DNA of 27,906 nucleotides from Promethearchaeota archaeon (lineage in GTDB: Archaea; Asgardarchaeota; Lokiarchaeia; Sigyniarchaeales; SOKP01). Where the stretch lies: the NCBI GenBank assembly GCA_019058015.1, contig JAHLWH010000217.1, positions 1 through 27,906 on the forward strand, given 5' to 3'. Of the stretch, positions 14,165 through 18,223 are shown one piece after another. The notes beneath the pieces were generated by a model. It had not been told where the DNA came from. It saw only the letters and a list, made by a program, of their open reading frames with translations, and did not search any database. The position numbers and the translations under genes are program-made. Numbering within the stretch: position 1 is the first letter of the stretch; every line of letters begins with the position of its first letter.

Positions 14165-16206
14165 TTAATCTGGTAATTTTTTATTGTTAATCATATTTAA
14201 GAAATCCTTTTCTTCAAGAATTATCATATTATCTCTTTAGCTTTATCAAATTTTGACCCAGGATTCTTTCCAACAACTAAATAATCTGTTTCCCTACTCA
14301 CATTAGAAGTGACTCTCCCACCATATTTTTTTACTTCTTTGGAAGCTTCATCTCTAGTATATTTATCTAAAGCCCCTGTAAATACGAATTTTTTTCCCTC
14401 TAAGAAATTATTAAATTCTTCCTTCTCAGCAATCATATTAATCCCATGCTGTCTTAACTGTTGGATTAATTCACTGTTTTTTTCTTCATTAAAAAAATTT
14501 ACAACACTCTTTGCTATTTTTGGACCGATTCCATCAATTTTCTCTAATTCTTTGGGGAAAACATTCATTAATTCTTCAATATTGCTATAATGTTCGGTAA
14601 GAATTTGAGCTATATATTCACCAACGAAAGGAATACCCAATCCAAATATTAATCTCCAAAGGGCTCTCTCCTTGCTATTGTTAATCGCTTCTAAGAGATT
14701 TATGGATAATTTTTTTCCCATCCTTTCAATTTTTCTAAGTTCTTCTACTTTTAAGTCATAAATATCGGCTATATTTTTTACTACGCCCTTATCAACTAGT
14801 TTATTTAATAATTGTGGACCTAAACCCTCTATATTCATGACATTTCGGGAACCCCAATGCTCGATTCTTTGTTTTATTTGTGCAGGACATTGAGAATTCA
14901 TACATCTTCTAATTACTTTACTCCCAATCATTTTAGCAGCACTACCACAGATGGGGCATCTTTGTGGCATTTCAAATTTATTTTCACTATCATCTCGGTT
15001 CTTTTTAATTGCTTTAATAACTTGAGGGATAATTTCTCCTGCTTTTTCCACTAAAACTGTATCTCCTATACGTATATCTTTCTGTCTTATTTCTTCTTCA
15101 TTATGTAACGATACTCTGGAAACCTGTGTTCCTGAAAGTTTAATCGGTTCTAAGATAGCAACAGGAGTTAATTTACCGGTTCTACCCACCATAATTTCAA
15201 TATTCTTAATCTTGGTTGTTTTTCTTTTAGGTGGATATTTATATGCCATTGCCCATTTGGGATGATGTTTTGTTGTTCCTAAAATTTCATGTACTTTTAA
15301 ATTATTTACTTTTATTACAATTCCATCAATTTCATAATTCAAATCTTCAATTTGATTCCTAAATCTTTCAATATATTTCATAACTTCTTCAATTCCATCC
15401 TTTCTAATAACTTTATCATTAATCCTTAATCCTGCTTTTTTAATCTCATCAATTTTTTCCCAATGAGTCTTAAAATTATCATCCTCATAATAACTAATTG
15501 AGTAAATAAAAATATTAAGTGGACATTGAGCAACTTTTTTAGGATCTTTGTTTCGGACTGTTCCTGCAGCAGCATTTCTTGGATTAGCAAAAGGTTCTTT
15601 TACTTCTTTTATTCTCTTTTTATTCATTTCTCTAAAAGCATCTTTAGGCATATAAACTTCTCCTCTAAATTCAACATTATTTAAGAAGGTATCAACAGTT
15701 AATTTTAAAGGATTAGACTTTATAGTTTTTAAATTTGGAGTAATATCTTCTCCTTTAGAACCATCACCCCAAGTGGCCCCTCTTTTGAAAATCTTATTTT
15801 CAAAATAAAGTGCTACTCCCAATCCATCAATCTTCGGCTCCACTACATATTATATTTTTTTTTCTCCAATTTTTAGTCTGATTTTTTCATCAAAATCTCT
15901 TAAATCTTCATAATTATTGCTTTTATCTAAACTAAGCATCTTTCTTTTATGTTCCACAGTTTCAAACTCTTCTATTTTTTCAGCACCCACTCTTTGAGTT
16001 GGTGAATCTTCAGAGATATATTCAGGATAAGTTCTTTCAAGAGATTCTAATTCCTTATAAAGTTGATCATATTCATAATCGCTAATTACTGGATTAACTT
16101 CTATATAATATTTTCTATTATTATAGCGAATTTTTTTTTTTAATTCTTCTATTCTCTTTTTTGCATCTTCTTTATTTTTAGGAATTTCAAATTTGTGTTT
16201 TGACAT
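14165..16206 (-). pseudogene. ligA: NAD-dependent DNA ligase, disabled
   Basis: ISDYEYDQL, SPTQRVG, EPKIDG, ANPRNAAAG, EIDGIVIK, VGRTGKLTP, Zn finger CPICGS..C..C, HhH, BRCT. In-frame TAA at 15852-15850; frameshift near 14231 hides the BRCT end NMIILEEKDFLNMINNKKLPD* (stop 14165). Confidence 0.92.
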
Positions 16207-16426
16207 ATTTTTGATGGTTTTTTCAGTTGATTCTCTTTCGAATTTTGTTTAGATCTTTTTTAAATCATCTCAATAATAATTTAACAATAATAAAATAATT
16301 TAATGATTTAATTATAAATTGATAAAATTTTGAGTTTAAAATCCTTCAATATAGTTCCTCTTATAGTTTCAATAAAAACGATGGAGTAATTTTTTTATAA
16401 TTCTAACTATATTAACTTCAAAGTTA

Positions 16427-16756
16427 TTAACTTTCAATTAAGATATTTTCTTCAGGAAATCCCTCTTTTATAAGAAACTTCTTCAGTCTAAAGCGGTGTT
16501 CTCCTTGTAATTCAATATGATTATCTCCAAATGTCCCACCAGACGCGCATTTTGTCTTCGCTTTAGTGATGAGTTTATCTAAATCAATATTAAAATCACC
16601 ATTAAACTTAACAATGGTAACTATTTTCCCCCATCTCCGTTTTTCATTATAAATTTTTATTTGTTGTTCTTCAGCTTCTAATATTTCACATATACATAAC
16701 TCCTTAGGAAAACTACATACAGGACAAATATTCTTATCTTTAATTTTAATAATCAC
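16427..16756 (-). CDS. Translation initiation factor aIF1 (SUI1 homolog); true start may be ATT 16744
   Basis: ICPVCSFPKELCICE, KRRWGKIVT, CASGGT, IELQGEHR. Confidence 0.93.
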   Translation of the reverse strand: MIIKIKDKNICPVCSFPKELCICEILEAEEQQIKIYNEKRRWGKIVTIVKFNGDFNIDLDKLITKAKTKCASGGTFGDNHIELQGEHRFRLKKFLIKEGFPEENILIES

Positions 16757-16850
16757 CTCTTTTACAATTTTATATTTATAATTTTAAAAATATTTAATAG
16801 AAAGGAAATCTTTTTCTTTTTTTTTTTAACGAGAAAACTCTTTTTATTTT

Positions 16851-17102
16851 TTACCAAAAACTCTTAATTTTCTCTCTTAATCCTCTCTTTTCGAGAAGTT
16901 GCTCTAATTTCCACTTATATTCAAAAATAGGTATAAATTTTATATTGTCAGTTAATAATTCTTTTACTTTTTTTGGATCCTTTATATGAGTTATGATTAA
17001 TAAATCTGTTTTAAAGTCTTGCTTAGTTAATTTTCTGTTAATATTCAATATTCTGGGATGCCTAATGTTTGGACTAACTAAAAATAAGCCTTTAGAATTC
17101 AT
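16851..17102 (-). CDS. Small hypothetical protein (ORF track start GTG 17114)
   Basis: ORF tightly downstream of tfb on the same strand; no recognised motif. Confidence 0.55.
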   Translation of the reverse strand: MNSKGLFLVSPNIRHPRILNINRKLTKQDFKTDLLIITHIKDPKKVKELLTDNIKFIPIFEYKWKLEQLLEKRGLREKIKSFW

Positions 17103-17124
17103 AATCACAATCACAATCTTAATT

Positions 17125-18033
17125 TTAATTTAATACCTCTTTAATGTCCTTTAATCTAGTTCTTAAAGTCACTTCAGTAATTTTAGCGATATCTGAAACT
17201 TCAGTTTGGGTCTTTCGATGCTTAGTAGATCTTGCTACCATATATATCGCAGAAGCAGCAAATCCTTTTGGATCTTTTCCATTTGTAGAAAGCCCTTTTA
17301 TAGAGGATGTTTTGAGTAACTTCAATGCTTCTTTTTGTGTTTTGAAAGGAATTTTTAACTTATTTCCAAATCTAAATACCAATTGTTCTGATGTGATTGG
17401 TTTATATTTGAGATTAAGTTCTGGTAAAACTTCTTTAATTAATATTCCTAAAGAGCGAATAACTGTTCTTCGAGAAGTTACACATGCCTTGCATATTTCT
17501 TCCAATAGTCTAGGAATTTCATGAACTCGAATCGCAGCATATAAGGAAGCCGATACAAAACCATCTATTGATCTACCCATTGTTAATTTCTTTTTTGCAA
17601 CCGATATATAAATTCTCCAAGCTGTTTGATAAACATATTCAGGAATATTTAATTTAGAAACAAGTAGTTTCATTTTAGGTTTAGCGTCCCATAAATTTCT
17701 TTCTATTCCCGAAGTTAAAGATCTTTGTATTTTTGATAAACGTTTGAATAATAGTTTTCTTTTAGCATTAATATGATGACCATTAGAATCAACATTATTA
17801 TTTGGAAGTAGGGTTCTGGGACCAAAATTTCTCCATTTTACTTGCGTTCTTTTCCTTTTTCTTAATTCATCAGATGTGAAAGCTCTTCTCTCTTTTCTAA
17901 TTAATTGATTACCAAAAACCATACCACAATTTATGCATATAATTTGACCATTTCTTAAATCCACACATTGATTTTCACAACATTGTTCCTTTTTATTTAA
18001 TTTAGAAAAGCTTTTTTCTTTATAATTACTCAT
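17125..18033 (-). CDS. tfb: Transcription initiation factor IIB
   Basis: N-terminal Zn ribbon CC...ICINCG, ERRAF, cyclin repeats MGRSIDGFVSASLYAAIR and GKDPKGFAASAIY, TQTEVSDIAKITEVTLRTR. Confidence 0.94.
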   Translation of the reverse strand: MSNYKEKSFSKLNKKEQCCENQCVDLRNGQIICINCGMVFGNQLIRKERRAFTSDELRKRKRTQVKWRNFGPRTLLPNNNVDSNGHHINAKRKLLFKRLSKIQRSLTSGIERNLWDAKPKMKLLVSKLNIPEYVYQTAWRIYISVAKKKLTMGRSIDGFVSASLYAAIRVHEIPRLLEEICKACVTSRRTVIRSLGILIKEVLPELNLKYKPITSEQLVFRFGNKLKIPFKTQKEALKLLKTSSIKGLSTNGKDPKGFAASAIYMVARSTKHRKTQTEVSDIAKITEVTLRTRLKDIKEVLN

Positions 18034-18223
18034 TTTTAACTTTACTAATCTTTTAAATTTATTACTTTATGATAAAATCCTTTTTATTTATCCTATTTTA
18101 CAGTATTTTTATAAAATTACTCATTGGTAAAACATATTGCCTTTTAATAGCATTTTTTGAATAATATGACTTAAAATCTGAAAACACGAACATTTTTAAG
18201 ATTTTAAGTAATTTATTTTATTT

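Follow-up and report, generated by a model that had tools for sequence, protein, structure and literature searches.

An aIF1 gene without AUG in an Asgard archaeon: a probable AUU start behind a strong Shine-Dalgarno sequence and its possible role in autoregulation

The archaeal initiation factor aIF1 is a SUI1-family protein that acts on the small ribosomal subunit and rejects start codons other than AUG. The window considered here (the whole stretch of DNA that was analysed, 27,906 nucleotides, which is a complete contig of a Promethearchaeota archaeon assembly) contains an aIF1 gene whose entire 109-codon frame is free of Met codons, and whose start appears suboptimal for the very step that its product polices, an ATT behind a perfect Shine-Dalgarno sequence (SD). 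The locus thus raises the question of where its translation starts, and whether a weak start in the gene of a fidelity factor has a regulatory meaning. The features needed for the discussion are the following.

16427..16744, minus strand: aIF1/SUI1 coding sequence from ATT, 105 codons plus a TAA stop (open reading frame and SUI1 match)
16742..16744, minus strand: proposed start codon ATT (AUU), from conservation of the homologous codon, codon periodicity and distance to the SD
16752..16759, minus strand: SD GAGGTGAT, complementary to the 16S rRNA 3' end
16754..16756, minus strand: in-frame GTG within the SD, the sole canonical start and the rival start site (sequence reading)
16784..16786, minus strand: upstream in-frame stop TAA that closes the aIF1 frame (sequence reading)
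16688..16726, minus strand: N-terminal zinc knuckle C-x2-C-x6-C-x-C, Cys 7, 10, 17 and 19 counted from ATT (translation)
16760..16810, minus strand: AT-rich region with TATA-like runs (ctattaaatatttttaaaattataaatataaaa), a putative promoter (sequence reading)

The start region of the gene reads aaaaGAGGTGAttattaaaATTaaagataagaatatttgt on the minus strand. GAGGTGA lies at 16759-16753 and is extended to GAGGTGAT by position 16752; the spacer to the ATT is ttattaaa (8 nt, 16752-16745), and the codons after the ATT are AAA GAT AAG AAT ATT TGT CCT GTA TGT, i.e., (M)KDKNICPVC. An earlier note on this DNA had described a strong SD with GTG 16756 inside it and an in-frame ATT at 16744 placed 8 nt further on, and the sequence is exactly so. 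Its statement that this GTG is the sole canonical start also holds: from the stop TAA at 16786-16784 to the first Cys codon there is no other ATG, GTG or TTG. The presence of an in-frame ATT near the SD is not beyond chance if the window is taken alone, considering the 29% G+C content of the genome; among the 12 codon types tallied over the first 15 codons of long frames, ATT is the second commonest after the control codon AAA (5243 occurrences in 5546 frames). The significance of the ATT start therefore comes from the comparative data and not from the window sequence by itself.

The identity of the product presents no difficulty, and on the sequence matches the window gene is aIF1/SUI1. Its frame matches Pfam SUI1 PF01253 at 1.5e-17 (64.3 bits against a cut-off of 25.5, residues 30-101) and NCBIfam PRK00939 with 116.2 bits against a cut-off of 98, and the M. 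jannaschii aIF1 chain 4mo0_A is matched at 1.9e-27 (query 5-103 to chain 3-101). The zinc knuckle reads ICPVCSFPKELCIC, its four Cys are invariant in a 15-sequence alignment of aIF1, and all 16 of the 16 invariant residues of that alignment are kept in the window copy. By homology, the protein would be expected to bind the 30S subunit and to reject near-cognate starts.

The SD is of unusual strength. The 16S rRNA of this genome ends in ...GGATCACCTCCT (contig C75), to which GAGGTGAT is an 8-base perfect match with a predicted duplex energy of -14.4 kcal/mol; the median for the first-ATG frames of the genome (n=2627) is -3.3 kcal/mol, and only 4.1% of them reach -10 or better. The spacing from GTGA to ATG in this genome (29.4% G+C) peaks at 5-8 nt with 43, 39, 36 and 28 cases, followed by 16 cases at 9 nt, so that the 8-nt distance of the ATT lies within the optimum.

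The comparative evidence was obtained from 164 aIF1 loci in 161 genomes of the phylum: 39 loci from the 41 nearest genomes (with a match in 37/41) and 125 from a phylum sample of 151 genomes (with a match in 142/151). Loci cut by contig ends (G055 and G154) and short or stop-containing fragments (G010:C390, G019:C91, G021:C70 and G084:C134) were left out. The automatic assignment of starts was unreliable outside the families f1 and f2 (in f16 an ATA was chosen over an ATG 3 nt after the SD, and in f3 an ATA over ATG-GTG-ATG), so the counts rest on a simpler rule, namely, whether the stretch from the upstream stop to the first Cys contains any in-frame ATG, GTG or TTG. By this rule 47 of the 164 loci have no canonical start, 42 have GTG or TTG only, and 75 have an ATG; the surveyed genomes include related ones that are not independent, and these counts overstate the number of evolutionary events. 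For the window's GTDB family (n=38) the corresponding figures are 29, 8 and 1. In the 47 start-less loci the longest frame from ATG, GTG or TTG has a median of 70 codons, as compared to 108 when the frame is read from the proposed start.

The homologous codon is ATT in 30 of the 38 family loci, ATA in 6, ATC in 2 and ATG in none. It follows GTGA or GTGT by 9 nt at 26 loci and by 8 nt at 9; the remaining 3 loci have another purine-rich motif or none. The conserved ATT 7-9 nt after the SD for which the earlier note had proposed to survey the orthologs is thus found as AUH at 38/38 family loci, 8-9 nt behind the motif in 35/38, and the use of ATG at this site, which it held would speak against an AUU start, occurs at 0/38. 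Alignment of the 29 unique family sequences on ATH points to the same codon. The nine nucleotides before ATH vary at all three codon positions (entropies 0.8-1.7 bits), and codon periodicity starts exactly at ATH, with entropies per codon of 0/0/0.57, 0/0.57/1.07, 0.22/0/1.47 and 0.48/0/1.81, the third position being free. In the family the start codon always begins with AT, and T, C and A all occur as its third base, with no case of G. The initiator tRNA decodes the start codon and inserts Met whichever AUN is present, so a change from AUH to AUG is silent for the protein. Its absence from the family despite this suggests selection on the strength of initiation and not on the amino acid, and the maintenance of the weak start by selection is well supported. 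We consider it very probable that AUU 16744 is the start of the window copy; its use in vivo is what the conservation leads us to expect.

The same alignment clarifies the status of the GTG. When the spacer is 9 nt, the usual GGTTGTGA supplies an in-frame stop by its TGA. The 8-nt spacer of the window gene brings the GTG into frame instead, and that this GTG is the sole canonical start is therefore a by-product of spacer length. Two further mechanisms were considered for the family and rejected. A TTG-TGA start-stop with reinitiation, or read-through of TGA, does not agree with the orthologs, several of which have TAG or TAA as the stop, while others lack the TTG; the in-frame TGA is itself a consequence of the 9-nt spacer. 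A frameshift from an out-of-frame ATG was dismissed for want of a conserved upstream ATG in the family.

The genome contains two aIF1 genes, the window copy and a main copy on contig C75, which are 59% identical; the earlier note was written in ignorance of the other gene. The main copy (C75, 9184-9489) shares its 23-kb contig with the 3' end of the 16S rRNA gene. The other four genomes of the window's genus have the C75-type gene only, and the window copy clusters with second copies from two other genera, G023 (79% identical) and G123, with support 100/95. Each of the three genomes in this clade (loci L001, L002 and L153) also has a main copy, and all three second copies have GAGGTGA, 8 nt and then ATT or ATA. 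The SDs of the main copies are bulged (-7.9 kcal/mol for GGTTGTGA and -6.3 for the C75 copy, versus -14.4 for the window copy); one may speculate that the stronger SD gives the two paralogs different gains.

The window contig also encodes L1, L10/P0, a Ras-family GTPase, TBP, TFB, KsgA, RpoF, L21e, NurA and LigA. A mis-binned contig is ruled out, as L1, L10, L21e, KsgA and RpoF have their only copies in the assembly here; the window gene is a genuine second aIF1 paralog on a core chromosomal contig. Two neighbouring frames may be mentioned separately. The NAD-dependent DNA ligase gene LigA (14224-16206, minus strand) is one frame with a single in-frame TAA at 15852-15850, directly after a nine-A run (feature 15844-15852, minus strand) and immediately ahead of the catalytic EPKIDG motif. 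The interruption may reflect an erroneous base, a nonsense mutation of recent origin or slippage on the A-run. Between the TFB gene and aIF1 there is an 87-codon frame (16851-17114, minus strand) that has no Pfam match and is covered by an RNA contig from a relative.

That RNA contig belongs to the single metatranscriptome with a partial match, whose contigs are about 94% alike (i.e., from a relative) and cover 16806-18100 of the region 15800-18100, which includes the TFB gene and the small frame and stops short of aIF1. Going down from 17072 it matches the window as far as 16806, beyond which its sequence is unrelated; the relative seems to lack a second aIF1 at this place. As for the leader, the TATA-like runs about 26 nt upstream of the ATT had suggested that in the window copy the AUU is read on a leaderless mRNA, and this possibility was considered. 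Against it, the main-copy orthologs (L004-L010, L150-L161 and others) have a far better conserved AAAGATTTTTATAAGATTT..TCTATTATTTTTTAG block 50-85 nt before the start, the BRE/TATA-like AAAGATTTTTATAAGATTT part being about 70-85 nt upstream across genera, which implies a leader for these genes; the window copy retains only a degenerate version and may differ. Judging by its sequence, the block is probably a BRE/TATA box with a transcription start, and if it is a BRE/TATA box with an initiator, the SD of the main-copy orthologs would lie within a leader of some 45 nt. A conserved RNA fold is not supported: for 20 orthologous leaders RNAalifold predicted just 5 pairs (-1.68 kcal/mol), every one of them in the coding part.

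The use of weak codons extends beyond the window's family. In the sister families of the order (f2-f4 among them) the homologous codon, placed before P-K-D, is TTG, GTG, ATA or ATG. A set of 80 aIF1 loci from named public genomes, which overlaps the survey genomes (the same species set) and is not independent of them, contained ten start-less loci, or 7/80 after removal of the anchor artefacts L281, L283 and L286, which have no zinc knuckle and a visible ATG. At loci labelled Odinarchaeota and Baldrarchaeum the codon is ATA, placed 9 nt after GGAGG, and a canonical start is missing; the aIF1 of Thorarchaeota has GTG or, with an in-frame stop upstream, CTG; and CTG follows GGAAGGTG in a Hodarchaeota locus and GGAGGTGA in one Hadarchaeota locus. 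Since AUA and CUG are two changes apart, near-cognate aIF1 starts probably had several separate origins. The codon is TTG in ten Methanomethylicia-type loci. In loci of the Methanomethylicia/Methanosuratincola type (L229-L231, L234, L235, L237, L240, L247 and L248) the conserved TTG stands about 9 nt after AGGTGA, the TGA of which is an in-frame stop, i.e., the geometry of the Loki family with a canonical weak codon. In the f16 loci L123, L124, L126 and L127 there is an ATG 3 nt after GAGGT and an in-frame ATA 9 nt after it; in L124 the ATG is replaced by ACA and the ATA is kept, and the real start of the f16 gene may be the ATA. The start is ATG in Woesearchaeota (6/6), Aenigmatarchaeota, Methanococci, Methanosarcinales and others. 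Since many aIF1 genes of Asgard archaea, and most of those from other archaea, start at ATG, a feedback of the AUU type would not be universal.

Two other initiation factors served as controls in the 41 nearest genomes. For aIF1A the start is ATG in 25 loci and TTG or GTG in 5, and for aIF2beta it is ATG in 28 and TTG in 2; no start-less locus occurs in either set (n=30 each). Within the window's genus, TTG stands at the conserved aIF1A start in 4/4 loci seen (L193 = C243:23563-23769), and the aIF2beta gene of the window genome itself (C81:16619-16951) likewise has TTG at the conserved start; most relatives have ATG in both genes. Weak starts thus occur in several of the initiation-factor genes of the genus.

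The frequency of near-cognate starts in the genome at large was approached by an SD scan judged against a control with off spacing, which was chosen because a decoy of reversed motifs is poor (reversed GGAGG is GGAGG itself, and TGGAG contains GGAG). The SD is enriched at the right versus the off spacing for ATG (7.4% vs 0.6%), TTG (5.6% vs 1.3%) and GTG (4.2% vs 1.4%), and no clear enrichment was seen genome-wide for ATT (87/73), ATA (65/66) or ATC (25/22). Considering the lack of a clear ATT enrichment, the base rate of near-cognate starts is poorly bounded. SD-led frames comprise 83 with TTG versus 218 with ATG. In 18 long frames (on contigs C43, C125, C193, C158, C156 and others) an SD match of at least 6 bases is followed by ATT, ATA or CTG, with no canonical start in the vicinity; two of them, on C43 and C125, are paralogs with a common N-terminus (M)SI[DN]W from the near-cognate codon. 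These frames are candidate members of a near-cognate-start gene set. Other genes that seem to start at AUU or AUA weaken the case for aIF1 as special, and in this genome it is less special than the earlier note assumed.

We presume that the weak start serves the control of aIF1 by its own product. Translation would start at AUU 16744, 8 nt behind the perfect SD, and not at the embedded GUG. With plentiful aIF1, pre-initiation complexes would turn down the AUU on the aIF1 mRNA, and less of the factor would be made; with scarce aIF1, the AUU would be accepted and more would be made. According to extracts of PMC4705826 and PMC8211752, in the presence of S. solfataricus aIF1 the 30S complex rejects an AUU mRNA that it binds without the factor; if the window aIF1 acts in the same way, its AUU-started mRNA would be translated less when aIF1 is abundant. 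Taken as a whole (an AUU start at 16744, kept by selection, most likely for negative feedback), this reading seems to us somewhat more probable than its negation, and self-limiting synthesis is, on our analysis, the best reading of the data and a plausible one.

Other explanations of the start region have to be weighed against it. The window paralog might start at GUG 16756 and make MIIKIKDKN..., e.g., from a transcript with a short leader or none, in which case GAGGTGA would not be used as an SD. It is tempting to propose this for the only canonical start available, which each of the three members of the paralog clade (L001, L002 and L153) has in frame, and the TATA-like runs 25-40 nt upstream could set the start of transcription near the GTG or the ATT. 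This frame, however, is due merely to the 8-nt spacer, and the 26 loci with a 9-nt spacer have the TGA stop there; the codons between GTG and ATH differ among the paralogs (IIK, KTK, KRF), and conservation begins at ATH; the GTG is inside the SD and has no SD of its own; and the N-terminus would be 6 residues longer than that of M. jannaschii aIF1, as compared to 2 residues from the ATT. We therefore regard a GUG start as very unlikely. Still less credible, indeed hardly to be entertained, is that the window gene is a duplicate in decay or without function, whose start context means nothing. It is a second copy, it has E for D in the IELQGDHR motif, and the RNA contig of the relative diverges at 16806, just upstream of the gene; yet the 105-codon frame is intact with 16/16 invariant positions kept, the clade is retained in three genera, each time with a perfect SD, 8 nt and ATH, and the contig is core chromosome by its single-copy L1, L10, L21e, KsgA and RpoF.

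A more serious objection concerns not the start but its purpose: the AUU may be one case of a lineage-wide habit of using AUU, AUA or CUG for a low fixed output, and any feedback may be of no consequence. The 18 strong near-cognate candidates of this genome, including the C43/C125 pair, and the frequency of TTG among SD-led frames (83 vs 218 for ATG) agree with such a habit. The conservation in aIF1, on the other hand, is far above such a base rate (38/38 family loci, and separate AUA and CUG classes), and the control factors aIF1A and aIF2beta are start-less at 0/60 loci. Besides, if aIF1 rejects AUU, as extracts of PMC4705826 indicate for the characterised factor, a negative dependence on itself follows almost automatically. 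We judge a fixed low output unlikely, though clearly less so than a GUG start. At the other extreme, the self-limiting aIF1 might act as a homeostat of stringency in Asgard archaea: aIF1 started from a near-cognate codon would set the acceptance of near-cognate codons in general, and would thereby govern a regulon of dozens of genes started at AUU, AUA or CUG, eukaryote-signature proteins included. The two paralogs with strong and weak SDs would then be two gain settings, and the near-cognate aIF1 starts of several lineages would probably have been acquired independently. We offer this extension tentatively and consider it doubtful. If it is true, the eIF1/eIF5 stringency circuit of eukaryotes would have a forerunner in archaea.

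To place the self-limiting reading in context, fidelity factors that limit themselves through a weak start of the encoding gene are established for bacteria (IF3/infC) and for eukaryotes (eIF1); if the same holds for Asgard archaea, the circuit would be a general solution found in all three domains. In the open full-text literature covered, we found no archaeal aIF1 gene described as non-AUG-started or autoregulated. Extracts of five papers on aIF1 and archaeal initiation (PMC6237735, PMC4705826, PMC8211752, PMC6412873 and PMC7531240) mention neither a non-AUG start nor autoregulation of aIF1, and in those of PMC6237735 the eIF1 loop appears only as a eukaryotic parallel. There are also practical consequences. 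Standard gene callers cannot start these genes, so that aIF1 is expected to be truncated or missing in many Asgard annotations, and the window leader is a concrete and easily tested substrate for in-vitro systems of archaeal initiation.

Among the known systems, E. coli pcnB has an AUU start that limits its expression. There, too, a near-cognate start behind an SD holds the output down; in contrast to the circuit proposed for aIF1, nothing links the pcnB product to start selection, so that it is a model for a low fixed output. The characterised aIF1 proteins of M. jannaschii, P. abyssi and S. solfataricus belong to the same family and share the zinc knuckle, whereas the locus labelled Methanococci starts at ATG (MPEICPRC). 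The bacterial infC gene, which encodes IF3, reportedly starts at AUU and is subject to translational autorepression. In both cases the gene of a fidelity factor starts at AUU behind an SD and the factor disfavours that class of codons; the differences are that IF3 is unrelated to aIF1, that the feedback is demonstrated for infC while for aIF1 we infer it, and that the aIF1 codon drifts among AUU, AUC and AUA and to CUG or GUG in other lineages. Eukaryotic eIF1 is said to start at an AUG in poor context and to be autoregulated. It is a SUI1-family homolog with the same role in fidelity, and weak initiation at its own gene likewise serves as the sensor; unlike the aIF1 gene described here, in which a strong SD is combined with a weak codon, eIF1 keeps AUG and relies on a weak Kozak context under scanning. 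The Asgard version, if true, would thus combine a homolog of eIF1 with the device known from bacteria, a near-cognate codon placed behind an SD.
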